This document shows, in pieces, positions 4,135 to 32,256 of a stretch of 61,148 nucleotides of DNA (the first letter of the stretch is position 1; each line of letters starts with the position of its first letter). The notes beneath the pieces are model-generated. The model made no database searches. It worked only from the letters and a program-made list of their open reading frames with translations, and was not told the origin of the DNA. This stretch comes from a virus (lineage: Duplodnaviria > Caudoviricetes): positions 1-61,148 of IMG/VR virus record IMGVR_UViG_3300037408_000144; one strand, given 5' to 3'. The position numbers and the translations under genes were made by a program.

Positions 4135-7100
4135 CGAGATCGTCAAGCTGTCCGACCGACTGGCGGACGAGTTCGCCACGGGCGAGGCTGACCTTTCGCG
4201 CACCGCCGTCCTTCCCGGCGTCCCACCACCAACCGAGGACATCGCTGCCGTCGTGCGCAGCGTGCGGGCCCTCAAGACGGTCGTCGACACCCTGACGGGT
4301 ACAGCCGGGTCGGTGCTGGACAAGGCGGTCACGACGCGCGACCTGCTGGCGGACAACGTGATGGTCTACACCCCCTCGACGGGGTTGTCCGCTGGCGAGA
4401 CTACGAACGTGGTCGTTGGCGGAGGCGGCGGAGGCGGCGGAGGCGGTGATACGGGGTACGAAGACCCGCGCCCGGTACTGACAGTCCCGCCCACCCCGAC
4501 GAATCTCACGGCGATGGGGGCGTTCGCCAACATCATCCTAGACTGGGACTTGCTGGACTACCGCAACCACGCGTTCGTGGAAGTCCTGCGCCATACGGCG
4601 GACAACGTAGCCCTGGCCACGGTGATCGGCACGGCCTTGGCCAACCAGTACACAGACGCGACAGCTGTCGTGGGTGTTACGTACTACTACTGGGTTCGCG
4701 CCGTCAATCTGGAGGCTGTCACAGGGTCGGTCAACGCTGCTGCGGGCACGCCCGCAACGCTGGCTATCCCCGTGGGGCCTCTGCTCGACGCCTTGACGGA
4801 CCAGATCACCGAGTCGCAGCTGTACGCCACGCTTGAGTCTCGGATCAACCTGATCGACGGTAGTGGCGCGGGATCGGTCAACGCGCGTATCTCGGCGCTG
4901 TCGGCAGTCAAGGCGCGAACGTTCTATTCGGCCTCGGCCCCTGTGTCGGACGGTACGTACACGCTGCAGACCAACGACCTGTGGTACGACAGCGACGACG
5001 GCAACAAGCCCTACCGCTGGAACGGCAGTTCGTGGGTGGTTATCACCGACTCGCGCCTGACCACGGCTATCAACGACATCTCCAGCGAGACGACCAACCG
5101 CATCACGGCGGACACCGCCGAGGTCAGCGCGCGGGAAAGCCTGTATGCCGCGTTGTCCGGCACGGGGGCCAGCGGCTACAAGGTCTACAACCAGTCGGTG
5201 TCTCCTACCGGACTGACATCAACCGACATCGGTGCGATCTGGACGTGGAAGACCGGGGCCGGCGTCGAGACCTTCCAGCGATGGAACGGCACCGCCTGGG
5301 TTGACTCCCTGTCGAACAAGCGCGCGGCGACCTACCGCGGCGCGTCAGCGTCCCCCACGACCACAGGCAACGTCATCGGCGATGTGGCGCTGCGCACGAC
5401 GGACAACGTCGTTCTGATCTGGAACGGAAGCGCCTGGGTAACCCGCACGAACGTCGACCCTGTGGCGGCTTTGGTGTACCAGGAGCAGGCGGCGCGCATA
5501 ACGGACACGACTGCCGTGGCGCAGTCCGTCAGCAACGTCAACGCGCGACTGAACTCTGGGGGGGACACCTACACCTCCATCGTCAACGTAGACACAAAGG
5601 CATCGGCCAAGAGCGCGAACTTCGTCCAGGCTACAGCCCCTGCCAACCCGAGCAACGGGCTGGCGCTTCGCACGGGCGACCTGTGGGTGGACACGACCAA
5701 CGGCAACCTGCTCAAGCGGTGGAATGGCAGCGCCTGGGTGACGGCGGATGACACGCGCATTGGTGCGAGCGCCTCGTCTATTACGACACTGCAGAGCCAG
5801 ATGGACACGACCACGGGGTCGACGCTCTACTCTGCGGTTCAGACAGAAGCCAACACTCGTGCTACCCAGACGGGCGAGCTGTATGCGCAGTACACCGTCA
5901 AGCTGGACGTCAACGGATACGTTGCAGGCTACGGTTTGGCCAGCACTCCAGTGAACGGTGTTCCGTTCAGCGACTTCCAGGTACGGGCGGATCGGTTCTC
6001 CATCACGAACCCGAACGCCACGCAGGTAGCGATCAGCTCGCTCACCCGCACCACCACTACGGCGACGCTGAACACGTCAGTGGCTCACGGCCTAGTCGTC
6101 GGGGACACGTTCGCCATTCGCGGCGTGACCAACGACAACAACTGGAACCGCGGATGGAAGGTGCTGACGCGGCCGAGCACGACGCAGATCACCTTCACGG
6201 TCCCCAGCACGCTGACGACCCCGGCCACAGTCACTACGGCGAAGCTGTCGTCCGCTCGCATCCCGTTCATCGTCGATACAGGCGTGGTGTACATCGACAC
6301 CGTGGCCATCAAGGACGCGTCCATCGTCAACGCGAAGATTGCTAACGGGGCAATCGACAACCTCAAGATCGCCGACGGCACGATCCAGAACGGCAAGATC
6401 GCCGACGCCACGATCCAGAGCGCGAAGATCGCCAGCCTGGAAGCCTCCAAGATCTCAGCCGGCTCGATGTCGGTGGGCAACTACATCCAGTCGACGGGGT
6501 ACAACGCCAACGTCACGGGGTGGATCATCCACGGCAACGGCGCTGCTGAGTTCGGTGCCACCTCGATCCGCGGGCAGCTGACTGCGAACCAGATCGACAC
6601 CCGCAACCTAACGATCAAGGACAACGCCGGAAACATCATCCTGTCTTCTGGCGGTGCGAATGTTGTCGATGGATACCGTGGAACAAACCCGCTTCCACAG
6701 GACTTCACTACTGGGGAGAGTTTCTACTTCAAGGGCGTCCCCGATGGGTTTAACGGCCCGGTAGGGCAGGGCTACGGTTCTTTGAGAACCCTGCGCCCCT
6801 ACGGGGCGTCAACGGATTTCTCTGGTGGGGCAATAACCCAGTGGTTTGAAGCCAACGGACTTGTGTGGTCGCGGAAGTCAACCTCTGCAACTACGTGGGG
6901 GGCGTGGGAGGCCGTGCCCAACGGCACCATCACCAGTGGGAACGTCAGCACCTATATCGCCGACCTCGCAGTCAACACCCTGCAGATCGCCGGCAATGCG
7001 GTGACGATACCCATGTTGACTTATACCGCGGCGTCCACCAGCTACTATGGACCGGTATCGCACCCCGGCCCATACCCGTGGGACACTGTGCAAACCGTGA

Positions 7101-8316: not shown

Positions 8317-8340
8317 CGTCGACGTACGGGGGACGCGCTC

Positions 8341-9771
8341 ATGACCCTAGACGAGTACTACCAACTGCTCTCCGCTGGGCAGCAGTACGTGCGGAATGCA
8401 CAGGCCGCCGACCCCGAGTGGCAGGAGTGGCAGCGTATCGCGGACACGTACACGCCCGACATGGGCGGTGCTCCGGCGTCCCCCACGACGGACTACTGGG
8501 GCAAGTACATGGCGACGCTGTCGCCCCAGCAGCAGGCTGAGTTCGCCCAGACGATGGCGCAGTTGAAGGATGACCGCTGGCAGACCTCGGTCGGCAACGT
8601 CATGCAGTACATCCCCGCCGCCGTGGGGGCAGTGGGCTTGGCTGGGATGGGTGGGTTGCTCGGCCCCAGTGCGGGTTTCCCTGGTACGTCGATCTTTGCC
8701 GGTCTTGGTGAAGCAGGTGCTGCTGCGGGCGCGGCGGAAGCCGCCACTGGCGCAGGGTTCGTCGGAGAGGGGGCGCTATCTGGGGTGCCTCTGTGGGATG
8801 GGGCGCTTGCTGGTGCTGGTGCGGCGGGGGCGGGTAGCTCTCTTCTCACTGGTGCCGGCAAAGCCCTAGCCGGCGCGGCGAGTTCCGTGCTCACGGGTGG
8901 GTCCGGTGGGTCCGGCGGCTCTGCCTTCCGCAACACGCTGACCGGCGAAGTCACCGGCGACCAGGAGAACCTGAACTCGCAGATGTACAAGGCGATGGGC
9001 GACCAGCTTGCCTTCAACCGCGAGCAGTTCGACTACTACAAGGGCCTGTCGGATCGTCAGTACCAGCTCGGACAGAACGTGTTCGACTGGAACCAGCAGA
9101 TGGCCAACGACGCCAAGGCACGGGCGGACAGGTTCGACAACCTGTACTTCGACACGACCGGCCGGCAGCTCCGCCAGTTCAGCGCTGATGTCGACAAGTA
9201 TGACTCCCCCGCGGAGGGGCTGCGCATGTCGGGCCGGGCGATGGCGGACGTCGAGGGTCAGCTCGACAACGCTCGCGGCGCACAGATCCGTGGGCTGACC
9301 TCGCGCGGGTGGAACCCGAACGCCGCAGCGCTGCAGTCGTCGATGGGCGACATGGAGCTGCAAGGGGCCCTGGCCAAGGCCAGCGCGTCCACGATGGCTT
9401 TCGAGGCGGCGAAGCGCGAGGGGCTGAACCTGCGTGCGATGGCGGCGGGCCTGGGCCAACCGAACGCCAACGTGGCGACCGCCAACACAGGACTCTCGGG
9501 CCAGCTGAGTTCGTCGGGATTGGATTCGTCCGTGAAGTCCATGCAGCCGGGTTTCACCAACCTCGGCCTGTACAACCAGGGCCAGGGCGTCGGCGTCAAC
9601 TGGGGCAATGCTGCCAACAGCGGTTACAACGCCATGCGCACCGGCAACAGCAGCTGGTCGGACAACCTGAACTACGGTGGCGCGCTGCTTGGCGGGCTGC
9701 GCGGGTATGCCACTGGCGGAACGTGGGGTGGTCTGGCCGGGGCTATCGGCGGTCTTACGGGGTGGGGTTGA
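8341..9771 (+). CDS. Internal virion / DNA ejection protein
   Basis: Gly/Ala/Gln-rich, coiled-coil-like; first of three genes of increasing size, as in podoviral ejectosomes. Confidence 0.7.
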   Translation: MTLDEYYQLLSAGQQYVRNAQAADPEWQEWQRIADTYTPDMGGAPASPTTDYWGKYMATLSPQQQAEFAQTMAQLKDDRWQTSVGNVMQYIPAAVGAVGLAGMGGLLGPSAGFPGTSIFAGLGEAGAAAGAAEAATGAGFVGEGALSGVPLWDGALAGAGAAGAGSSLLTGAGKALAGAASSVLTGGSGGSGGSAFRNTLTGEVTGDQENLNSQMYKAMGDQLAFNREQFDYYKGLSDRQYQLGQNVFDWNQQMANDAKARADRFDNLYFDTTGRQLRQFSADVDKYDSPAEGLRMSGRAMADVEGQLDNARGAQIRGLTSRGWNPNAAALQSSMGDMELQGALAKASASTMAFEAAKREGLNLRAMAAGLGQPNANVATANTGLSGQLSSSGLDSSVKSMQPGFTNLGLYNQGQGVGVNWGNAANSGYNAMRTGNSSWSDNLNYGGALLGGLRGYATGGTWGGLAGAIGGLTGWG

Positions 9772-11116: not shown

Positions 11117-14100
11117 GTGCTCGACATCCAGAAGCTACGGGAACTTGGCGGGGGCCTGAGCAACCTCACGGACGAGCAGATTGCGCGTTCCGCACACGAG
11201 GCGTACAGGGGCTACTACCCGGACTTCAACGACTTCGCCAAGCGGATCGGCTACGCGCCGGAGGACGACTTCGTCCGCGGGCTGAAGATGGGCGGCCGGC
11301 AGACCCTGGCTGCTGGTGCTGGTGCCCTGGCGATGGGCGCAGACGCCATCGGTGCCACGGGTGCGCGCGACTACATGCTTGACGCAGCCCGCAACCAGTC
11401 CAACAAGGCGTTCCAGCTCAGTCGTCGGTCGGACGACGTCGACAACTTCCGCGAAGACCCGCTGTCGTTCCTGAGCGCCGGGGCGGGCCAGGTGGCCGCG
11501 TTCGCCATCCCGTCCCTGGTGTCTGGCGGCCTGGGTGCCGGCGTTGCGGCTGCGCGTGGAGGCAGCATGCTGCTCGGTGCCGCTGCGGGTTCCTACGGCG
11601 CGAACTTCGCCCAGGAGGCGGGCGGCATCTACAACGAGCTGGCGGATCAGGGTCGCTACGAGCCGGGCCGCGCGGCGGCATACGGCGCAGGTGCTGCTGT
11701 TCTGGACACTGCGACCGAGGCGATTCCGTTCGCCCGGGGGGCGTTTCGCGGCGGCCTGCCGACCCGCATGCTCAAGGGTGCCGCGCTTCAGGCTCCGATC
11801 GAGGCAGGTACCGAGACGATCCAGACGGGCATCGAGCGCGCGGGCGCCTACAAGGATCTGAACAGCGACGAGGCGTGGAGCGATTACCGCAACGCTGCGG
11901 CACTGGGTGCCATCGGCGGCGCGGGCTTCGGCGGCGCCACTGGGGCGTTCTCCCGGGCTCCCGTGGACCTGCTGCGCAACACGAACCCGCAGGTCGAGCC
12001 TCCCGCACCTGAAGCGCCCCCCGCGCCCCCCGCCCCGCTGGGCCTGCAGTGGAACCAGCGCTACGAGCCTGACGGCGGCTTCTTCGGGCAGCAGAACCCG
12101 TTCGTGGTGTTCCCCGACGGCTCGACCGCGACGCAGTCCGACGCCGAGCTGATGCAGCGCTACGAGATGACCCCCGACACGCTGGGCGGTCTGCGCCAGG
12201 GCGGGGTGCGCGTCGATCCGTCGATGGACACGGGCAACGTCGCTCCGTATCTGCCGGGCAAGATGGTCGCCGACCAGGGCGGCCAGGTGGCACTCGACGC
12301 CCCCGCTGCGGACTCGCTGTACGGTCGGGATGACGGTGACATGGGGCTCGTCGTGGCGCGCGAGCGCTACCTGGCCCAGAAGCAGGCGGCAGAGCAGGCC
12401 GCGGCCCAGAAGGAGGCCATCGCTGCCGAGGCCGCGAAGCGCGAGCAGCTGGCTGCGCGCACCCTGGATGCCACGGGGGTCAAGGGCACGACCGCTGTCG
12501 ACTTGTTCGGCCAGCTGGAAGACCTGAAGAACCGGGGTGCGATCGACGAGACGGATTTCATCAGCGCCGCGGCGCTGATCTCCGTGCGCGAGAACGGCAA
12601 GGTACGCAAGGTCATCGCTCAGGCCCAGGCCAAGCTGGCGCAAGCCACCCCCACTGCGGCACCCGTGCAGGCCCCGGCCGCACCCACTGTACCCGCGGAG
12701 GCGCCGCCGGCCGTGCTGGCCCAGGAGCAGACCCCCGCCCTGCCGGACGCGGTTGCCCGGCGGCGCATGTCCACCGAGCAGCTGGCGCCCCACGTCACCG
12801 AGATCCTGGCTCGCATGGGGGTCGATCCGGCCAAACCCGTGGAGGTCAAGCGCAAGAAGGTCAAGACCACCATCACTGCGCAGCAGCTCGTCACCGACAT
12901 GCTTCGCGCCGACGACATCGACGTCGCCGCGGTCGAGGGTGCCACAGGCATCGACTTCACCAGTGGTAGTGTGCGTGAGCCGTTGACCCTGGATCAGACC
13001 GCCCTGCTGGTGGCCAAGCGCACCGGCAAGAAGATGACCAAGCAGTCCATCCAGGCGCGGCTGGCCAAGTACGGCGTGGACAAGGACACCGCCAGCCTGA
13101 TCGGCTACGCATCGGTGGAACCCGTGGCCCCGGCCGAACTGGGTGTGCAGGGCGGCAGCGTCGTCGAAGGTGAGGAGAGCCCGGCCTTCGGTGCCGGCAT
13201 GCGCGTGGAGAACTCGGCCTCCGACGCAGCTGCGTCGGGTGTACTCGAAGACGGCCGGTCTACCGAGGATCCGAAGATCGCTGCGGCGCTCCTGGCGCTG
13301 GCACGCAAGGCGGAGTCCGCCGCCGAAGGGTGGGTGGGTGCCGACCAGGCCAACATGACCAAGGAGCGGGCCGACGCAGCCGCCGTGGCGGACTTCGATG
13401 CCGACCCCACTGCCGGCGAAGATCCGATCTTCGTGGAAAAGCGCAAGGCTGCGGCACTGGCGCGTGCCCAACTGGCGAATAAGCGAGACGAGGTAACCCG
13501 CGCCGCGCGCTGGGAAGAAGCCACGGGCAGCAGGTGGCTGCCTGGCACCGTGCAGTGGGAACTGCGCCGTGCGCTGGACTCCGGGAACATCGTCGAGGGC
13601 GACATCGCCGAGGCCCGCGACTCCTACAATGAAGACCTGCGGGGCGACGATCCGACGTGGGACGACCTCACCCCCGAAGAACAGGCTGACTGGGTCGGCA
13701 CTAACCTGAAGGACGCAGATGGACGAATCACTGCCCAAGAGTACGCCCGAGAGTGGGGCGCCCTCGTCGACCGCGCCCGCCAGCGATTCCAAGGCGCCAA
13801 TCAGCCCCGAGCACTTGGCGGACCTGAAGCTACTGAAAGCGTTCAACCTGTCGCCCCAGCAGTACAAGCGAGCGATGATCGAGCTGCACAAAAAGCACCG
13901 CGGACCTTCCGCGTAGAGAAGCCCGGTGCGGGCAAGCTGAAGGCAGTGCGGCCCAGCACGGTCCCGGGGGAGCCGGAAGATACCAGGCTGTCCACGTTCA
14001 GCGCCGTCAAGACGATGCCCGGTGCATCGCACGCACTGGACACGATGGGCAAGTTCGGTATCGCGCATGTGGTGGACTGGGTGGACACGTGGTTCACCAC

Positions 14101-17100
14101 GAACCCCCGACACAACGGCGACGGTGGCACGTATTACGCGATCGGCGACAAGCAGGTCGTCGAGTGGCGCCCGACAGCCGACCCAACCAAGTACGGCAAC
14201 GCGCTGGTAGACTTCGTGCACGAGGTCGGGCATGCTGTGGACATGGCGTCCTACGGCGGCGGGGTGTACTCCACCCAGCCTGAGCTGGCGTTCCGCTGGC
14301 AGGGCGAGCCTGTGGCTGCGGGTTCCGTGGCGCGCGAGCTGGCGACCATCTACATGTTCCAGCCGGAGAGCCCGCTGGCCGCGCTGTTCGAGTACCCGCT
14401 GGACCCGGAGAAGCACGGCGGTACCATCAAGACTGCGGCCCGCGCGTCCCAGGAAGTGTTCGCCAACCTGCTGGCCGCGTACCATCATCCGGCACTGCAG
14501 CGCGAGCTGAAGAAGAACGCTCCACTGGCGACCAAGTTCATCGAGGAGGTCATCCGTGACATCGGTCAAACAACCCGTGAAAAAGCCCACAGCCTCGAAG
14601 CTGCTCAACGACGCCGTGCCGCCTTCCAAGGCCGTGCCGATGGCGCCGCTCAAGCGCAGCAACAACCCGGCACCCAGCCCCGAGTTCCAGGACTGGCTCA
14701 ACCAAGGGCTGAATCAGGAAATCGAGCTGCCCAAGGCCCGCTGAAGTCCAAGAACGCGAACCTCGACAGCAAGGCCCTGAGCGAGCTGGAGCTGCCGGGT
14801 AAGGTCAAGGGCGTCAAGGGGTTCATCGAGGGCGTCTTCAAGGACGGCCTGTGGCGTGCCCACCCCAGCCTGCTGGGCTGGCTGTCGGCCGAGCAGCTTG
14901 GCGCACGGTTCAAGACTCTGCCGGGTGTACGCCAGTTCGCGGAACTGACGGCCCGCATGTCGGGCCGGGCGAACCAGATCATGCACGCCGCCGACGTGAT
15001 CAAGCGGCGCTGGGAAGCCTTGGCCGAACCCGACGCGCAGGCCCTGGGCGATCTGCTGCTGGACAGCACTGGCGCCAGCATGTGGCCGAACCTGGACTTC
15101 CGTGACGAGAAGAACCTGCACATCGAGGACACGCCGGAGAACCGGGCGCAGCACGCCAAGCTGAAGGAGCGCTTCCGCACCGCCAAGCCGGCCGTCAAGC
15201 AGCTGTACCTGGACGTCGTGGCGGACTTCGAGACGCGCCGCCAGGCCAAGATCGAGGGCGTGCGCAGGGGTATCGTCGCCACTTACTACCCGGACGAGAC
15301 CTCGGACACCAAGGGGCTGTCGCGCCAGGAGGTCGATCGCATCGCCGACGCCAAGGGCAAGGCCCGCGACGAACTGGTGCAGTCCCTGGGCACCACGGTG
15401 CGCCGCCAGCGCGAGATCAAGAGCCTGGTCAGCGACCTGACCCAGCATGCCGACACGTTCCGCACCAACCCAGGGCCGTACTTCCCGCTGATGCGCTTCG
15501 GCAACAACGTGGTGTCGGTGAAGTCCAAGGCGTACGTCACGGCCGAGCAGGAACTGGTCTCTGCCCAGAAGGCCCTGGCCGCAGCCGAGAACGACTCTGC
15601 CGCCGGCACCGACCTAAAGGCCGAGCGCGACGAGGTCAAGCGGGCCACCACGGTGCTGAACAAGATGAAGCGCAGTGGCAACGACTACCGGGTCGAGTTC
15701 TTCGAGACCTACGGCGAAGCGCGCCAGTTCAAGGAGCAGGCGGACGCCAAGTTGGGTGCCGGCTACGAGGTCAACCAGTCCGTCAAGGACCAGTACCTGA
15801 AGTCGGTGGACGCCACCAGCCCGACGTTCATGAAGCGCATCGAGCAGAAGCTCGGCCAATACTTCCAGGGCGAGAAGGGCGAGCCGATCAAGCAGGCCGT
15901 GCGTGAGATGTACGTGCAGATGCTGCCCGAGAACAGCATGCTGAAGTCGCAGCTGAAGCGGCAGAACGTGCTGGGTGCCAGCCGGGACGCCATGCGGTCC
16001 TACGCTGCCAGCTCGGTGCGCGACGCGCACGGCATCAGCCGCCTGGAGTACCAGGCCCCGCTGCGCGAGGCACTGGACACGCTGCGTTTCGACCGCAAGG
16101 AGATCGACGCCAAGATCGTGGGCCAGGAACTGGCCGCACGGCTGCAGCAGAACTTCGAGTTCAAGGACCACCCGCTGCTGGGCGCAATGGGCAACATGAC
16201 GTACCTGACGCGCCTGGGCCTGTCCCCGTCGTTCCTGGTGACGCAGCTGACGCAGCCCTGGTTCATCTCGGCCCCGATCCTGGCCAGCCGGCACCACATG
16301 AAGTCCTTCGGCGCGCTGCGCGAGGCGACAGCCGCTGCCGGCAAGATGCTCCACGCCGACGCCAAGAAGCAGGGCACCGCGCACTTCAGTCTGGACCCCG
16401 ACCGCGCCCTGAAGGCCGGACAGATCACCCAGGACGAGTCCCTGATGCTCAAGGACATGCTCGACCGGGGCCGCATCGACATCACGATCACCCAGGACCT
16501 GGGCGCCACGGCGCAGGGGCGCGACGACTCCTGGCTGACCAAGGCCACCCGGATCAGCGCACTGCCGGCGCAGCAGCTGGAGGTCATGAACCGCGTGGCG
16601 ACGGCACTGGCAGCCTACCGGCTGCAGAAGCAGCTGGAACTCAGCCGCGGTGTGGACAACCCCGTGGCGCTGGAGCGCGCGGCGAAGTACGCCGACGAGA
16701 TCGTCTCGGAGACGCACCTGAACTACGCGGCGGAGAACCGGGCGCGGCACATGCACCCGAACACCTGGGGCGGCTGGGGCCGCATCATGTGGCAGTTCCG
16801 CAGCTACCAGCAGGGCATGATCTACCTGGTCATGAAGAACATGATCGACGCCATGCGCGGCGACAAGGAAGCGCGCCGGGCCTCGGCCTGGCTGGCGGGC
16901 ATGATGATGGCCTCCGCGGGCACCACGGGCCTGCCTGGGGCCGCTGTGGTCGGCACGACGATCAAGCTGATCTACGACGCGTTCAAGGAAGAAGACGACG
17001 AGCGCGACCTGCGCCAGATGATGTACGCCGGCCTGGAAGCCGCCGTGGGCAAGACGGTGGCCGACGCCCTGGTCAAGGGCCTGCCTGCTGCTGCCGGGGT

Positions 17101-17734
17101 GGACATCTCTGGCCGTGTGGGCCTGGGCAACATCTTCTCGCCGGCACCGTACGCGGACGACCGGGCCGAGGGCAGGGACATGGTGGCTGCGTACTGGCTT
17201 GCGGCCGGTGGCGCGGCGATGGGCGTGGCGGCTGACTGGGCCGAGGCCATGAAGCTGGCTGACGAGGGCAAGTACGCCCAGGCCGCGCAGCGTGCGCTGC
17301 CGAAGGTCGTGTCGGATCAGATCCGCTGGGCCCGCGAGAGCGTGGAGGGCCGCACGGACACGCGGGGACGCGTGCTGGTACCGGCCGAAGAACGGGGGTT
17401 GGGGGATGCCCTGACTCGGGCGATGGGGTTCTCGACCACCGATGATGCCCGCATGGGCGAACGCCGGGCGGCGTTCTTCGACGCGCGTGAGAAGCGCGAT
17501 TCGGTGCGTCAGAGTCTGCTGACGAAATTCGCCAGGGCCCGGATCGGGGGTGAACCCGTCACCGAGATCCTGGACGAAATCGCCGCGTTCAACGGGCGTC
17601 ATCCCGACGCCAAGATCACCCCGGCGAACCGGGAGGCTGCGGTACGCAGCACCCGCAGCCGCGCGAAGGAGATGCGCGGCGGGGTGCCGGTACGGGAACG
17701 CGATCAGGAGTTGGCGGAAGACTTCGGGATCTGA
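11117..17734 (+). CDS. PLxRFG-domain large polyvalent internal virion protein with HExxH zincin motif
   Basis: 2205 aa; YFPLMRFG; FVHEVGHAVD (HEVGH at 14219-14233). Confidence 0.85.
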   Translation: MLDIQKLRELGGGLSNLTDEQIARSAHEAYRGYYPDFNDFAKRIGYAPEDDFVRGLKMGGRQTLAAGAGALAMGADAIGATGARDYMLDAARNQSNKAFQLSRRSDDVDNFREDPLSFLSAGAGQVAAFAIPSLVSGGLGAGVAAARGGSMLLGAAAGSYGANFAQEAGGIYNELADQGRYEPGRAAAYGAGAAVLDTATEAIPFARGAFRGGLPTRMLKGAALQAPIEAGTETIQTGIERAGAYKDLNSDEAWSDYRNAAALGAIGGAGFGGATGAFSRAPVDLLRNTNPQVEPPAPEAPPAPPAPLGLQWNQRYEPDGGFFGQQNPFVVFPDGSTATQSDAELMQRYEMTPDTLGGLRQGGVRVDPSMDTGNVAPYLPGKMVADQGGQVALDAPAADSLYGRDDGDMGLVVARERYLAQKQAAEQAAAQKEAIAAEAAKREQLAARTLDATGVKGTTAVDLFGQLEDLKNRGAIDETDFISAAALISVRENGKVRKVIAQAQAKLAQATPTAAPVQAPAAPTVPAEAPPAVLAQEQTPALPDAVARRRMSTEQLAPHVTEILARMGVDPAKPVEVKRKKVKTTITAQQLVTDMLRADDIDVAAVEGATGIDFTSGSVREPLTLDQTALLVAKRTGKKMTKQSIQARLAKYGVDKDTASLIGYASVEPVAPAELGVQGGSVVEGEESPAFGAGMRVENSASDAAASGVLEDGRSTEDPKIAAALLALARKAESAAEGWVGADQANMTKERADAAAVADFDADPTAGEDPIFVEKRKAAALARAQLANKRDEVTRAARWEEATGSRWLPGTVQWELRRALDSGNIVEGDIAEARDSYNEDLRGDDPTWDDLTPEEQADWVGTNLKDADGRITAQEYAREWGALVDRARQRFQGANQPRALGGPEATESVQPVAPAVQASDDRAAQKAPRTFRVEKPGAGKLKAVRPSTVPGEPEDTRLSTFSAVKTMPGASHALDTMGKFGIAHVVDWVDTWFTTNPRHNGDGGTYYAIGDKQVVEWRPTADPTKYGNALVDFVHEVGHAVDMASYGGGVYSTQPELAFRWQGEPVAAGSVARELATIYMFQPESPLAALFEYPLDPEKHGGTIKTAARASQEVFANLLAAYHHPALQRELKKNAPLATKFIEEVIRDIGQTTREKAHSLEAAQRRRAAFQGRADGAAQAQQQPGTQPRVPGLAQPRAESGNRAAQGPLKSKNANLDSKALSELELPGKVKGVKGFIEGVFKDGLWRAHPSLLGWLSAEQLGARFKTLPGVRQFAELTARMSGRANQIMHAADVIKRRWEALAEPDAQALGDLLLDSTGASMWPNLDFRDEKNLHIEDTPENRAQHAKLKERFRTAKPAVKQLYLDVVADFETRRQAKIEGVRRGIVATYYPDETSDTKGLSRQEVDRIADAKGKARDELVQSLGTTVRRQREIKSLVSDLTQHADTFRTNPGPYFPLMRFGNNVVSVKSKAYVTAEQELVSAQKALAAAENDSAAGTDLKAERDEVKRATTVLNKMKRSGNDYRVEFFETYGEARQFKEQADAKLGAGYEVNQSVKDQYLKSVDATSPTFMKRIEQKLGQYFQGEKGEPIKQAVREMYVQMLPENSMLKSQLKRQNVLGASRDAMRSYAASSVRDAHGISRLEYQAPLREALDTLRFDRKEIDAKIVGQELAARLQQNFEFKDHPLLGAMGNMTYLTRLGLSPSFLVTQLTQPWFISAPILASRHHMKSFGALREATAAAGKMLHADAKKQGTAHFSLDPDRALKAGQITQDESLMLKDMLDRGRIDITITQDLGATAQGRDDSWLTKATRISALPAQQLEVMNRVATALAAYRLQKQLELSRGVDNPVALERAAKYADEIVSETHLNYAAENRARHMHPNTWGGWGRIMWQFRSYQQGMIYLVMKNMIDAMRGDKEARRASAWLAGMMMASAGTTGLPGAAVVGTTIKLIYDAFKEEDDERDLRQMMYAGLEAAVGKTVADALVKGLPAAAGVDISGRVGLGNIFSPAPYADDRAEGRDMVAAYWLAAGGAAMGVAADWAEAMKLADEGKYAQAAQRALPKVVSDQIRWARESVEGRTDTRGRVLVPAEERGLGDALTRAMGFSTTDDARMGERRAAFFDAREKRDSVRQSLLTKFARARIGGEPVTEILDEIAAFNGRHPDAKITPANREAAVRSTRSRAKEMRGGVPVRERDQELAEDFGI
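13719..13916 (+). CDS. Nested +1-frame small protein (65 aa) inside the PLxRFG gene
   Basis: GAAGGA SD 5 nt before ATG; G/C-ending codons switch to this frame while the host frame turns A/T-ending. Confidence 0.6.
   Translation: MDESLPKSTPESGAPSSTAPASDSKAPISPEHLADLKLLKAFNLSPQQYKRAMIELHKKHRGPSA
14556..14744 (+). CDS. Nested +1-frame small protein (62 aa) inside the PLxRFG gene
   Basis: GAGGAGGT SD 5 nt before GTG; same codon-bias switch. Confidence 0.6.
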   Translation: MTSVKQPVKKPTASKLLNDAVPPSKAVPMAPLKRSNNPAPSPEFQDWLNQGLNQEIELPKAR

Positions 17735-28073: not shown

Positions 28074-28248
28074 GAATACTGGCCGCCAGTCGGCGGGCTT
28101 CAGACACGACTTCCTTGTGGAGGACGTCGATTTCTTCCAGGGCACCCATGAGGCGCGACACCAGGACGATCTCTCTGTCCGAGGCGTAGTTGTCCTGCAA
28201 GACCTGGTCGATAAGGTCGGTTGTCGTTTGTTGTTCGTAGCAGTTCAT
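28060..28248 (-). CDS. Hypothetical protein
   Basis: Overlaps both neighbours. Confidence 0.6.
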   Translation of the reverse strand: MNCYEQQTTTDLIDQVLQDNYASDREIVLVSRLMGALEEIDVLHKEVVSEARRLAASIHGDA

Positions 28249-28904
28249 GTTCTTCCGGAAAATTCACACTGAGTCTTCGTGACAGGGCACCACGCCCTGC
28301 ACAGTCCTGACGGTTTCGGGGGAAACTTCTCGTCCTCGATGGCAAGCTCCAAGCGCTGCACGCGAGACTTGAACCCGTCCCACAGGCGGGCGGCGTCGTC
28401 ACGTGTGTATTGTGCTGCATCGAGTCGGTCATGGCCAAGCCACGCATACGCTGTTCTGATTGTTTCGGCATGTGGGAACACCGAGAATGCCGTAGCTGCA
28501 AACAGTTCGAGTTGATCCGTATCAGATTTGGGCTTCCCAGTTTTCCAGTCGACGATCGTCACGCTCTTGGGTTTGACGACGGCCAAGTCGTACACCCCCC
28601 GCACCCACACGTCCTTGGCGAAGAACCCGGTAGGCCGCAGGGTCTTGGTCAGGCCGAACTTGTGCTCCACGTGCTTGATGCCGGGTGATGCCTTCACGGC
28701 CTCCACGATCGGGATGTAGCGCTTGTACTTCTCGGGCAGCCACTGCTCGCCCTTGATGTGCTGCTCGATGGCCTTGTGCACCTGGTTGCCGCTGATGGTC
28801 GCCTCGGTCTGCGGCTCGACAACGGTCTTGAGGATCTTTGTCAGATAAAAGCGCCTCGGGCACGTCTCGTACGCCCCGAGGTAGCTGTAAGACCAGGCGG
28901 TCAT
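28245..28904 (-). CDS. PD-(D/E)XK (Cas4/RecB-like) exonuclease
   Basis: WSYS..YETCPRR, GNQVH, RGVYDL..IVDWKTGK, QLELFA, LCRAWCP. Confidence 0.85.
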   Translation of the reverse strand: MTAWSYSYLGAYETCPRRFYLTKILKTVVEPQTEATISGNQVHKAIEQHIKGEQWLPEKYKRYIPIVEAVKASPGIKHVEHKFGLTKTLRPTGFFAKDVWVRGVYDLAVVKPKSVTIVDWKTGKPKSDTDQLELFAATAFSVFPHAETIRTAYAWLGHDRLDAAQYTRDDAARLWDGFKSRVQRLELAIEDEKFPPKPSGLCRAWCPVTKTQCEFSGRT

Positions 28905-29215
28905 CTCGGCTTACCTTGAAGGCGGTCCGCGACGAGCTGGGCGTACCCAGCAATATCGACCCAGGAGTCATCGTAGTCCGGGTCGCCGTTCACAATGCGC
29001 CCGATCTTATGGAAGATCATCTCCAGCGCTTCCATCTGGTCGTCGGCCAGGGTCTTCTGTCGCTCCGCCAGCGCCCCCTGCAGCGCGATCTTAAGTGTCT
29101 GCGTCACACGTGCGTGACCAGCGAACGGCCCGTACCGCTTCCCTCTGGCGTCTAAGGTCTCTGACAGGGTCGGCTTACTTTCTAACACGCCGTCAGGCAT
29201 GGCTGATCCTTTCAT
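28901..29215 (-). CDS. DUF6378-like protein (104 aa)
   Basis: RGKRYGPF..HKIGRIVNGDPDYDDSWVDIAGYAQL. Confidence 0.75.
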   Translation of the reverse strand: MKGSAMPDGVLESKPTLSETLDARGKRYGPFAGHARVTQTLKIALQGALAERQKTLADDQMEALEMIFHKIGRIVNGDPDYDDSWVDIAGYAQLVADRLQGKPR

Positions 29216-29270: not shown

Positions 29271-32114
29271 TTATTTCGCGTCGCCGTAGCAGCCGGCGAA
29301 CGAACCTTCTGACCAGAGGACGATCTGAGGCCACCACGACGGCGGGGTGCGCATGATGCGCTGCAGTTCAGCCAGCAGGGGCTCGGCCTCTGACTGCGGG
29401 AACATGTAGACCAGTTCGTCGTGCAGCCGCATGACCGGACGCAGCCCAGTGGACTTGAAGAACCGCAAGGCACACTCGAACACGCTGTCGCGGGCTAGGG
29501 CTTGGACGATGTTCTCGTCGACCTTCGGGCCTGTCAGGAACGCCCTGTGCCGCCCTTCGGCGTACACCCAGGACATCTTGGCCCGGCCGTCCTCCCACTT
29601 CTCACCCGTGTCCATGAACCGCAGGTTCGGGTACCGGATCTTGCGCCCGCTGGGAAGCTGCAGTCCCTCGGCACAGGTGGTGACCAAACCCCACGGGTCG
29701 ATCTCGCGCTTGACGTTGCGCACCACGTCGTGCAGGGCAGCTCCGCAGGTCTTCCAGCCGTCAACGATTTCGGCGTAGCGAGTGCGCCAGCGCTCCACAC
29801 CGTCCTGGGACTCCTCGTTCGACAGAGTGATGCCGCCCATCGTGCGCGCCACTCGAATGAACGTCTTCCACCCGGAGCCGAACCCCAGGCCCAACTGGCA
29901 GTTGGAAACTAGCCGGTCACTGACAGTGAAACGATGTCGGGGTCCGGCGTTGAGAAGGTCCCATACACGCCTTTCGGCTTGTCGCTGGGGCGGACCCAGC
30001 GGGCTACTATCTGTTCGTCGGTCATCCCCATAGACAGCAGATTGCGCAGCGTGTTGTCCGCGTACCGGACCTCCGGGTAATTCTGGCGGAACATGTGGAA
30101 CCGCTTCACATTCGACCCCCGGCGATTGGCCATGTTCTGAGCCCGCGTCACCCACCGAAGGTTGCCCGGCGAATACCCGCTGTTGTTGTCCTTCCGGTCC
30201 AGCTCCTTGCTTCGTTCCAGTCCCAGGTTCTGCATAACCCATACTGCCGCCGCCGCTACGGACTCGAACTCGAACGTCACGCCCCGGCCACCGTACAGCG
30301 GATACGCTATGTCGTTCGGGTTCGTGCAGCGCTGTCGCGCTGCCTCCAAGCGCTTCAACAGCCACGTCGGGGCACCGCACTTCTGGCTGCAAGATTGGCA
30401 TGCGCGCGACTTCCCCGATCGCAAGCTGTCGTAGCTCACTGCACGCACTGTCGCGCACCCGGTGCACCGCACTGTGACGTACCGATACCCCTTGACGCGT
30501 GTCCATTGCCTCGACACCAGCTCCGCCAAACCCCAGCGGTGCCCCACCGGCTCCGGTGCGAGCGAGCCGGAGTGATTGCGAGGCTGCATCCCGCAGAAGA
30601 ACCTTCCGTCCGTCCTCGACCCAGACTTCGTGGTCTGGGGTCGCTGTGAGTCCGTCATACGTAACCACCTCCCTGACACCGTTGAAGATCGGGCCGTCGT
30701 GGTGAACCCACTCGATCCCGTCCCAAACTAAATCTAACACACTAACGGTTTCTATCGGTTTGGGACCGGAATCTGTCAACACCAACTCCCCCTCAGCGAT
30801 GCACACTTTGGCAAACTGGCGCTCCGGCTTGACGATCTCGTCGGGGGCCTTGTCGTAGTAGAACGCGGCGAAGTCCTTGTACAGGTCCGCCTTCGGGTCT
30901 TGCGCGTACAGCGCCATCGTGGACGGCACCTTCCACAGGGTGTGGTTGACCCGCAGCTCGATGCCGGACTGGTCGGCCACGCCGACCACGTAGCCCTTCG
31001 GGGCACGTAGACTCTTGCGCAGGGCGTCGCTGATCTTCGGCCGATCGGGGTCCACCCGGGGGAGGTTCTGCGGGTTGTACAGCCAGCCGCTGTCGCGTCC
31101 CGTGGTGTCGGCACCGCAGTATTTCAGGGGCACCGGCAGGAACCCGTTCAGCTTGGCCTGGGTCTGCAGGAACGCCTCGATGCGCGTCTCCAGCAGGGTG
31201 GACTTCACCGCCAGGCGGGTGCGGGCCGCCGCGGCTACGATCGGGTCGTCGTGCTCCTGCAGGGCCTGGAACTCCTCGTCGGTCTTGGCCAGGGCCGGCA
31301 CCCGGTTCTCCGGGTTGGTGGGCGAGGGTTTCATGGGCACCTCGACGCCGCGCTGCGTCAGCAGGGCGGAGAACTTCGGCGCGGACGCCAGTTGCTCGCG
31401 AACCCACTCGGCGATGCCTTCCTCACCCTGCTCCCAGAAGTCCTCCACGTCGGGCTGCAGCATCTTGGCCAGGTCCAGCAGGGCGCGGTGCTTGTTGGAC
31501 CGCTCGACCGACGCCGTCGTCTCCAGCAGCCCCGTGTCGATGGTGAACTTGGGCTCCACCAGCATGCGGATGTTGCAGTCCAGGTGCCACAGTTCCTCGG
31601 CCTTGAAATGCGGGGCCAGCTTGTAGAACAGGGCCGCGCACTGCTCGGTGTCCTCCCGGTTGTACTTCTCCATCGCGGCCAGTTCCTCGGGTGTGAACTC
31701 CTCCAGCCGCCGCCCCTTGGTGTTGATGAGTGCTGCCTGATCCTTGACGCCCAGCTCGTAGTGCGCCACCAGCTTGCCCAGGCCCAGGCCGACGTCCTTG
31801 GCGTGCAGAACCCGCGCCATTGCCAGCGTGCAGCCCCACATCTTGGGCTTGATGCCCAGGCGCCACGCCGAGATCATGGCGTCAAATTCGGAGTTGTTGT
31901 GGGCTACCAACAGACTGTCCGACCAGTCCAGGGCGTGCAGGTGCCGGCGGATCTCGGCTTCTCCGAAGAAGACGTCAGTCGGTGCGCCACCCACTTTCAC
32001 TGCGCACGAGATCAGCTGTGTGTCCGGATGCAGGACGTACTCGATCGGGGACATCTTGCTCAGGGAGTGAGTCGGGGACCAAAAGGTCTCGTAGTCCAGG
32101 AATACTGTCCGCAC
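29271..32114 (-). CDS. Family A DNA polymerase precursor with intein (947 aa; ~646 aa spliced)
   Basis: Exonuclease LDYET/AHN..FD; TTGRDSG..NPQNLP; motif A ADQSGIELR; motif B RQFAKV|CQLGLGFG split by the insert; motif C LHDELV; GTG start at 32114 inferred. Confidence 0.9.
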   Translation of the reverse strand: MRTVFLDYETFWSPTHSLSKMSPIEYVLHPDTQLISCAVKVGGAPTDVFFGEAEIRRHLHALDWSDSLLVAHNNSEFDAMISAWRLGIKPKMWGCTLAMARVLHAKDVGLGLGKLVAHYELGVKDQAALINTKGRRLEEFTPEELAAMEKYNREDTEQCAALFYKLAPHFKAEELWHLDCNIRMLVEPKFTIDTGLLETTASVERSNKHRALLDLAKMLQPDVEDFWEQGEEGIAEWVREQLASAPKFSALLTQRGVEVPMKPSPTNPENRVPALAKTDEEFQALQEHDDPIVAAAARTRLAVKSTLLETRIEAFLQTQAKLNGFLPVPLKYCGADTTGRDSGWLYNPQNLPRVDPDRPKISDALRKSLRAPKGYVVGVADQSGIELRVNHTLWKVPSTMALYAQDPKADLYKDFAAFYYDKAPDEIVKPERQFAKVCIAEGELVLTDSGPKPIETVSVLDLVWDGIEWVHHDGPIFNGVREVVTYDGLTATPDHEVWVEDGRKVLLRDAASQSLRLARTGAGGAPLGFGGAGVEAMDTRQGVSVRHSAVHRVRDSACSELRQLAIGEVARMPILQPEVRCPDVAVEALGGSATALHEPERHSVSAVRWPGRDVRVRVRSGGGSMGYAEPGTGTKQGAGPEGQQQRVFAGQPSVGDAGSEHGQSPGVECEAVPHVPPELPGGPVRGQHAAQSAVYGDDRRTDSSPLGPPQRQAERRVWDLLNAGPRHRFTVSDRLVSNCQLGLGFGSGWKTFIRVARTMGGITLSNEESQDGVERWRTRYAEIVDGWKTCGAALHDVVRNVKREIDPWGLVTTCAEGLQLPSGRKIRYPNLRFMDTGEKWEDGRAKMSWVYAEGRHRAFLTGPKVDENIVQALARDSVFECALRFFKSTGLRPVMRLHDELVYMFPQSEAEPLLAELQRIMRTPPSWWPQIVLWSEGSFAGCYGDAK
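29901..30803 (-). mobile_element. Intein (301 aa) in polymerase motif B
   Basis: Block A CIAEGELVLTDSG; block B TATPDH; blocks F/G VWDLLNAGPRHRFTVSDRLVSN followed by Cys+1. Confidence 0.92.
29909..30658 (-). CDS. HNH-type homing endonuclease (249 aa) nested in the +1 frame of the intein
   Basis: GGAGGT SD 8 nt before ATG; RCTGC..CQSC; RQRCTNPN..YPLYGGRG; LDRKDNNSGYSPGNLRWVTRAQNMANR. Confidence 0.88.
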   Translation of the reverse strand: MTDSQRPQTTKSGSRTDGRFFCGMQPRNHSGSLAPEPVGHRWGLAELVSRQWTRVKGYRYVTVRCTGCATVRAVSYDSLRSGKSRACQSCSQKCGAPTWLLKRLEAARQRCTNPNDIAYPLYGGRGVTFEFESVAAAAVWVMQNLGLERSKELDRKDNNSGYSPGNLRWVTRAQNMANRRGSNVKRFHMFRQNYPEVRYADNTLRNLLSMGMTDEQIVARWVRPSDKPKGVYGTFSTPDPDIVSLSVTG

Positions 32115-32256
32115 GTCGGTATCTTTCGATGATGGTTTGGATGGTGCCGAACGTGGCACCACATGAATCGCACTTGTGCCTGCGACGCATGACCCCGGAG
32201 ACCGGGGTGCGCGATGACGTCACGTGGGTGTGCGCGTTGCAGCTTGGGCAGCGCAT
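31975..32256 (-). CDS. NrdR-N-like zinc ribbon protein
   Basis: MRCPSC..T.V.SSR..RRRHKCDSCG.TF.T; AAGGA SD; 3' part overlaps pol. Confidence 0.65.
   Translation of the reverse strand: MRCPSCNAHTHVTSSRTPVSGVMRRRHKCDSCGATFGTIQTIIERYRRADSIPGLRDLLVPDSLPEQDVPDRVRPASGHTADLVRSESGWRTD

Follow-up and report, generated by a model that had tools for sequence, protein, structure and literature searches.

A giant phage gene for a polyvalent virion protein contains a second, complete reading frame which is likely, at a probability that we put at roughly 60%, to be a real, internally initiated nested gene. The host gene occupies 11117-17734 of a 61-kb virus record (Caudoviricetes, IMG/VR record IMGVR_UViG_3300037408_000144, GC 64%), and this whole stretch of 61,148 nucleotides (nt) is referred to below as the window. 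The nested open reading frame (ORF), at 13719-13916, is situated on the same strand, in the +1 frame relative to its larger host, and would encode a product of 65 amino acids (aa). Its translation, its start site, the fold of its product and any function this product may have are inferred. The features concerned are the following.

11117-17734, + strand: host gene, 2205-aa polyvalent virion protein (from the ORF list, homologues and Pfam)
13708-13713, + strand: Shine-Dalgarno (SD)-like GAAGGA, followed by CGCAG (five nt) and the ATG at 13719 (from the sequence)
13719-13916, + strand: nested ORF in frame +1 of the host gene, ATG start, 65 aa and a TAG stop (from the ORF list)
13784-13903, + strand: collapse of host codon usage with gene-like +1 usage, nested codons ~22-62 (change-point scan, 47.4 bits)
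13806-13898, + strand: predicted helix-turn-helix hairpin, nested residues 30-60 (AlphaFold2, single sequence)

Codon usage across the nested frame

The +1 frame is shut by a stop (TGA, 13707-13709) just upstream of the nested ATG. All of the codons quoted in a first-pass annotation of this DNA, together with the GAAGGA-N5-ATG start, are present in the sequence, and the switch in codon bias claimed there is borne out by frame-specific GC content. Read in the host frame, the ORF has GC contents of 0.82/0.58/0.48 at codon positions 1/2/3; read in the +1 frame, it has 0.58/0.48/0.82, and the whole host gene has 0.70/0.48/0.85. The GC content of host third positions (GC3) is therefore 0.485 over the ORF versus 0.85 for the gene. 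In 30-codon windows at 13757-13847 host GC3 is 0.30-0.53, with 0.80-0.87 in the +1 frame, and it falls to 0.325 in the 40-codon window starting at 13784. A change-point scan of all 2205 host codons gave two outstanding segments, 14564-14737 (57.5 bits) and 13784-13903. The third-best segment, at 9.6 bits, falls on the nested start (13715-13726), and the remainder reach at most 8.6 bits.

When scored with codon tables that draw on 11,835 codons in 34 of the phage's ORFs (suspect patches masked), the nested ORF has a coding-versus-off-frame value of +0.67 bits/codon, and of +0.93 over its final two thirds. Background +1 windows (n = 1042) score -1.24 +/- 0.40, which places the ORF 5 standard deviations higher, and the only background windows above it come from a real upstream gene overlapping a stop-to-stop extension. 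The mRNA around the nested ATG (-30 to +19) ranks among the least structured 7% when 1314 windows of the gene are compared; the corresponding tails are 9% for the start of the sister ORF described below and 15% for the host gene's own start. No promoter-like site was found within 13200-15000. This absence, and the weak structure at the start, are the reasons why initiation is read as internal. The same region has no Rfam family, apart from one chance row with an E-value of 0.7.

The codon signature at the nested ORF exceeds chance. When the host protein was synonymously resampled 20,000 times with phage codon usage, the lowest GC3 obtained was 0.667, against the observed 0.485, and no resampling reached the observed +1 coding score. 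Linker composition alone is insufficient to explain the dip, because 275 linker-like windows elsewhere in the phage (at least 60% Ala, Pro, Gln, Gly, Glu, Ser or Thr) average a GC3 of 0.80 and none of the genuine host-frame ones is as low as 0.325, the lowest lying at 0.475-0.55. Other Ala/Pro linkers within the host gene retain a GC3 of 0.77-0.87.

It is nevertheless conceivable, though unlikely, that the signature is a compositional by-product, in which an Ala/Pro/Gln/Gly-rich linker, with first and second codon positions rich in G/C, acquired A/T-rich third positions for mutational or mRNA-structure reasons and the +1 frame merely came to look gene-like. A Gly/Ala-rich low-complexity patch at 8647-8830 (+ strand, inside 8317-9771) lends this some weight: host GC3 dips there to 0.5-0.57, and the +1 frame, though open, is implausible in its abundance of Trp, Cys and Arg. 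Composition probably accounts for the dip in this patch, with no second gene present, which indicates that milder GC3 dips can arise where a second gene is not credible. Its +1 score, however, is merely +0.1 to +0.22 bits/codon against +0.93 at the nested ORF, and when resamplings were matched to the low GC3 only 0.26% of trials reached the observed score. Another patch, at 28496-28574 (- strand, inside 28245-28910), has many A/T-ending codons; its +1 frame is not open and scores +0.13.

The same genome also offers an overprint that can be recognized by its motif. The DNA polymerase gene at 29271-32219 (- strand) has an intein, with an HNH nuclease motif in the +1 frame at ~30000-30660. In this patch host GC3 drops to 0.33-0.6, and the core of the overprinted HNH gene has a +1 score of 0.74-1.13 bits/codon, level with that of 13784-13903. 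Both patches of the polyvalent gene match the HNH patch in signature and strength. ORF 13719-13916 shares with it the genome, the +1 relation, the collapse of host GC3 and the gene-like +1 codons, but lacks a recognizable motif of its own.

Sequencing or assembly error, that is two indels displacing the true host frame, is excluded as the cause. Short homopolymers do lie near the borders of the segment (CCCC at 13805-13808, AAAAA near 13888), but all of the 166 sampled words are present in each of three runs, possibly the source samples, and contigs from three further metagenome runs (X4, X7 and X10) span 13681-13969 with zero gaps.

Nested +1 frames elsewhere in the gene and in its homologues

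The strongest codon change-point of the gene belongs to a second nested ORF, and the two nested ORFs stand on either side of one host domain.

13964-14554, + strand: HExxH zincin domain, host residues ~950-1150, between both nested ORFs (alignment and profile of 17 homologues)
14543-14744, + strand: second nested +1 ORF (sister ORF), 62 aa; GAGGAGG, six nt, GTG at 14556, stop at 14744 (codon scan and alignment)

The host protein, whose homologues are 2081-2656 aa long, is composed of an N-terminal region, an ATLF-like zincin, LPD39 and a PLxRFG C-terminal region. LPD39, known from phage 'polyvalent' proteins, is its sole Pfam match (residues 1247-1372). The C-terminal 900 residues have 22-26% identity (tblastn) to genes annotated as 'DarB-like antirestriction' or 'PLxRFG protein' in cultured phages of ~60 kb; no DarB core was found in the host gene within the window. 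The zincin domain has no Pfam match of its own. Its alignment contains four invariant residues (H86, E87, H90 and E164), and its profile matches the ATLF-like (M34) fold known from anthrax lethal factor at E = 3e-8, with a weak match to Pro-Pro endopeptidases besides, so that 'peptidase-like', the term used in the first-pass annotation, is a fair label for it. The stop of ORF 13719-13916 lies 69 nt upstream of the HExxH domain.

The signal of the sister ORF spans from 8 nt past its GTG to 7 nt short of its stop. Distant homologues conserve the host frame at this place, and A1163, R1166 and F1170 are invariant among them. This frame is thus the ancestral one and continues to code, yet its synonymous sites are adapted to the +1 frame. 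The idea that the two nested ORFs are paralogues was considered and rejected (p = 0.19).

A protein search yielded the window's own protein and five others at E <=0.001 among 8000 candidates, one of them close (P0002) and four distant, and an alignment of these proteins led to 23 viral-contig loci among 343 pattern matches. The 23 homologous loci have 23-30% identity and a GC content of 44-67%, and in each the host gene is a single ORF of 1872-3393 codons; together with the window they form 16 lineages at <70% host identity. When all of their off-frame ORFs of at least 30 codons (1090 in total) were compared with each other, three conserved, unannotated families of +1-frame ORFs emerged, with 19, 20 and 12 loci for A, B and C, respectively.

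Family A: begins M-E-N-C-x-C-K-x-L-P-G-W-E..., 78-86 aa, 19 loci
Family B: directly after the zincin domain, begins M[ST]S.LQ.RF..., 51-116 aa, 14 + 6 loci (two blast clusters)
Family C: begins M-P-F-K-S-Q-A-Q-R-K-F..., 51-54 aa, 12 loci
Example locus L007: family A at L007:8334-8591, family C at L007:9633-9791, family B at L007:10509-10682

All three families occur in phages of 44-48% GC too, a composition at which chance would not be expected to produce long off-frame ORFs. A core of the GGAG, GAGG or AGGA type, as judged by eye, lies a few bases before the start in all 24 ORFs listed (8 loci, three families), and the start codon is ATG in all of them except one GTG. In 22 of the 23 loci (the exception is L023) a +1 ATG is found at, or at most one codon from, a shared aligned host position after the zincin domain. 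In the homologues it is created by a T-ending host codon (AAT, CAT or GAT), and in the window the start of the sister ORF, a GTG made from CGT, sits at the same aligned host codon as the family B starts. Among 11 family B loci, of which a single lineage supplies three, the mean column identity at positions 1/2/3 of host codons is 0.75/0.83/0.53 just upstream and 0.72/0.84/0.76 in the nested part; the rise at third positions from 0.53 to 0.76 is the constraint on synonymous sites that is expected of dual coding. Family C matches phrog_1375, which consists of free-standing small phage proteins (E = 2.8e-4). Families A and B have no match in Pfam or PHROGs, and a family A member has none in GenBank phages (tblastn).

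Nine higher-GC loci, counted without the near-duplicates L015 and L019, show 26 GC3 dips between them, and 15 of these coincide with a +1 ORF that is conserved in at least three lineages.

The sister ORF has no sequence likeness to family B by family hidden Markov models, hhalign or Smith-Waterman alignment, and may be regarded as its positional counterpart only. ORF 13719-13916 resembles the three families (L001-L023 and L025) in its host gene family, its frame, its design of SD plus start and its size, close to their 51-116 aa, and these families are likewise sited in linkers, with GC3 dips in the high-GC members. It differs from them in matching none of their profiles and in lying before the zincin domain, so that the start position of family B, the aligned codon right after this domain, is not the one that it uses. 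The first-pass annotation had seen the HExxH domain as bracketed by two nested genes. Both nested ORFs do flank the domain here, but the arrangement is not a conserved design, because the homologues keep only the ORF after the zincin and none directly before it: no conserved +1 ORF was found in them between the host motif 'W..L..EEQ..W' (matched by eye) and the zincin domain.

Two further loci deserve mention. In L025, an Undibacterium prophage, there are two family-B-like +1 ORFs (L025:6326-6586 and L025:7277-7570) about 950 nt apart, whose C-terminal halves share an 'L-T-P-[ED]-Q' helix motif faintly like ORF 13719-13916; Smith-Waterman comparison of that ORF with the two copies gave p = 0.13 and 0.011. 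The 3695-aa DarB-like gene of the cultured Pseudomonas phage Skulduggery (L024, PP627_gp28) contains a 150-codon +1 stretch at ~4500-4950, at host residue ~1401, whose translation looks protein-like and for which the record annotates no nested gene.

The predicted product and the weighing of alternatives

AlphaFold2, run on the single sequence, predicts two helices in the nested product, at residues 30-42 and 46-60 (block predicted local distance difference test score, pLDDT, 82-87), with residues 1-29 unstructured. A control ORF at 12330-12527, matched in length, frame, start and host gene and devoid of codon signal, gave no secondary structure and a mean pLDDT of 58. That the +1 peptide is predicted as an amphipathic helical hairpin, unlike this control, also speaks against a compositional by-product. 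The predicted hairpin coincides with the segment of codon signal and with the unconserved Ala/Pro/Gln linker of the host, and the unstructured leader overlies host codons of normal usage. No PDB structure was matched by Foldseek at an E-value below 4.7. A complex prediction with the zincin alignment and the 65-aa peptide scored 0.01, which is neither support nor counter-evidence.

Relatives were sought at several levels. The only close relative of the host protein, P0002 (1252 aa; 65% identity over the searched region, 76% over the C-terminal 1249 aa), begins as a called protein at a Met matching host residue M957, downstream of the nested ORF; either its contig ends there or its gene is interrupted upstream. 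Neither nested peptide matched P0002-P0006 (blastp), no off-frame ORF of the window matched those of the 23 loci (blastp), and the Pfam models of TnpV (PF14198) and SHOCT-like (PF22746) did not match ORF 13719-13916. Apparent likenesses to 14 family B members (Smith-Waterman) and to L018 were rejected, being low-complexity Ser/Thr/Pro in the former case and Ser/Thr only in the latter.

In an exhaustive search of 1.84 billion representatives the nested product had only two matches, both to repeat proteins with repeat-inflated E-values. The top one, P0007 (906 aa), was rejected: it consists of eight tandem units of ~113 aa, is likely a concatemer artefact and draws its score from seven weak repeats. 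The other, P0008, is a TrbI-like protein with five SHOCT-like stretches (PF22746), and its E-value of 6.3e-4 over six stretches is repeat-inflated. Nested residues 14-60 have 35% identity to one P0008 repeat, with a Smith-Waterman score of 67 against 33 +/- 4.4 for shuffles. Searched against the window cut into 1340 six-frame pieces, a profile of the repeats hits ORF 13719-13916 alone (E = 0.003), and it matches nothing else among the 1090 off-frame ORFs of the loci. Because P0008 stands out as the best only after selection from 1.84 billion proteins, and its repeats sum their scores, we treat this SHOCT-like resemblance as a possible lead only.

A number of these and other results weigh against a nested gene at 13719-13916. 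No relative of the stretch was found in GenBank phages (blastn) or, with the host protein, in viral contigs; an alignment of the window and P0002 retrieved no locus holding the stretch in metagenome, viral or genome contigs; the residues around the ORF had no relative in metagenomes; and a protein search for shorter fragments of host residues 560-960, like direct searches of viral contigs with both nested peptides, gave no match. Conservation, which would be the decisive test, is consequently missing. The ORF matched no Pfam family (at E up to 1), PHROG or ESM Atlas entry, none of the family A, B and C profiles detected it (hmmsearch, hhalign), and the exhaustive search added only the two repeat proteins. 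Its openness says little, as the +1 frame stays open in 81% of synonymous resamplings (P = 0.81) and in 0.39 of those at matched GC3. The fold comparison involves one control ORF only. It speaks for the gene that the sole variant listed within the ORF, a C>T change at 13830 (run X10), alters a host residue (GCT>GTT) and is synonymous in the +1 frame (CTA>TTA), but this is a single observation. Small fractions of the sampled words occur in RNA runs X6 and X8, and the X6 RNA contigs span 13936-14242, outside the ORF. The remaining 11 of the 26 GC3 dips in homologues overlie lineage-specific +1 ORFs only, without a conserved one, and some of them are possibly by-products, which adds to the case for a compositional origin. 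Finally, the first 21 nested codons have almost no coding signal (+0.18 bits/codon), so that entry by frameshift near 13784 would suit the codon data equally well.

This last point bears on two further explanations. According to one of them, which we hold to be improbable, the segment is the relic of a compensated double frameshift: the host would once have read +1 across ~13784-13903, two indels in a tolerant linker would have shifted it, and no separate protein would exist. The signal indeed begins mid-ORF at 13784 rather than at the ATG and stops ~10 nt before the +1 stop, the host peptide there is an unconserved linker tolerant of such change, and an open host frame of 40 codons is easily had at 64% GC. 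However, a relic is unable to explain the identical signature at 14564-14737, since the host frame of the sister ORF is conserved in distant homologues. It also requires three coincidences: that an SD and ATG should lie 65 nt upstream, that the segment should be followed at once by a +1 stop, and that codon usage should dip on the ATG itself. No similar main-frame segment was found in long proteins among the 1.84 billion representatives, save the two repeat proteins, the profile of the best-matching repeat finds nothing in the host frames of the 23 homologues, and a match by eye to a host-frame segment of P0003 was rejected when 84% of shuffles scored as high.

The other explanation is recoding, in which some ribosomes would shift +1 near 13784-13810, for example at CCC-CGA (13805-13810), and end at the TAG at 13914. 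The outcome would be an isoform of ~930 aa, cut short to the N-terminal part of the host protein and carrying the hairpin at its C-terminus. We consider both the shift and this product very unlikely. The late onset of the coding signal, at ~13784, would suit such an event, and at the site the rare Arg codon CGA comes after a Pro codon, a combination that is prone to shifting. Set against this, no stimulatory or structured element and no Rfam match were found, and the +1 codons at 13785-13804, upstream of CCC-CGA, already look coding. The conserved nested ORFs of the homologues each start with their own SD and ATG, which argues for initiation rather than shifting.

From all this we judge that the 'real 65-aa gene' of the first-pass annotation is likely: the codon switch and a plausible SD and ATG stand on its side, and the lack of any relative holding the stretch stands against it.

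Proposed division between the frames and its possible meaning

If ORF 13719-13916 is a nested gene, ribosomes on the late transcript of the polyvalent virion gene would initiate at its ATG, downstream of GAAGGA, and reading of the +1 frame would yield a cytoplasmic protein of 65 residues made alongside the giant protein. Its residues ~1-29 would form a disordered leader rich in Ser, Pro and Thr over a well-coded, probably helical part of the host, and its last ~35 residues a basic helical hairpin over the disordered Ala/Pro/Gln linker, so that each stretch of DNA would serve mainly one of the two proteins, as in Rz/Rz1. As to function, we would guess, holding the guess weakly, that the small protein is a producer-cell partner of the giant one, acting in chaperoning, assembly or silencing, and is not itself injected. 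The effector-inhibitor unit proposed in the first-pass annotation, in which a small overprinted partner that is left out of the particle would keep the injected enzyme inactive in the producer cell, may stand as a hypothesis only.

Embedded genes on the same strand are already known. Rz1 in Rz, the spanins of phage lambda, is likewise a complete small +1 gene within a larger phage gene, and the sensitive parts of one protein overlie silent parts of the other, as shown genetically (PMC5295617). The predicted division here is of the same kind: the hairpin falls on the host linker, and the disordered leader is written over a host helix that is well coded. Rz and Rz1, on the other hand, are two subunits of one complex with a function that has been shown, and Rz1 has a lipoprotein signal, whereas the host here is a 2205-aa multidomain virion protein and the small protein is without a signal sequence. 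In Bacillus subtilis comS, within srfAB, encodes a small regulatory protein in a distinct frame of a giant multidomain gene, and the two are co-expressed from one operon (PMC12915044). This system differs in being bacterial, in having a known function in competence and in bearing no sequence relation to the nested ORF. SD-led +1 genes in the linkers of polyvalent genes were not found described in the papers listed by our literature searches, or in the available part of the founding paper on polyvalent proteins (PMC5512222), whose supplements could bear on the point; the words 'overlapping' and 'frameshift' are absent from that paper. What the present analysis adds are the three families in the zincin/PLxRFG branch, the conserved start position after the zincin and a codon test that needs no relatives and is calibrated within the genome.

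A broader reading, which we put forward as a doubtful possibility, is that the giant injected polyvalent genes of a wide group of ~45-65-kb phages are small operons in two frames, whose linkers regularly hold SD-led +1 genes. By the same tentative reading these would comprise families A, B and C plus lineage-specific replacements such as the two in the window, each serving its neighboring domain in the producer cell. With no greater confidence, the pair in the window may be thought to flank the ATLF-like zincin and perhaps to silence it, or to help it fold, until it is packaged and injected.

If ORF 13719-13916 is indeed a gene, the largest gene of this phage encodes two proteins on one stretch of DNA where gene callers report one. 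The conserved nested design recurs in all but one of the sampled lineages of this gene family. A layer of small phage proteins beside injected anti-defence and effector domains would then be missing from annotation, PHROG and Pfam, and such proteins would be natural candidates for chaperones, inhibitors or timers of injected enzymes. Because one frame is predicted to be ordered where the other is disordered, these genes would also be clean material for the study of overprinting, and the codon-position signature offers a way of finding them in high-GC phages without any relatives.

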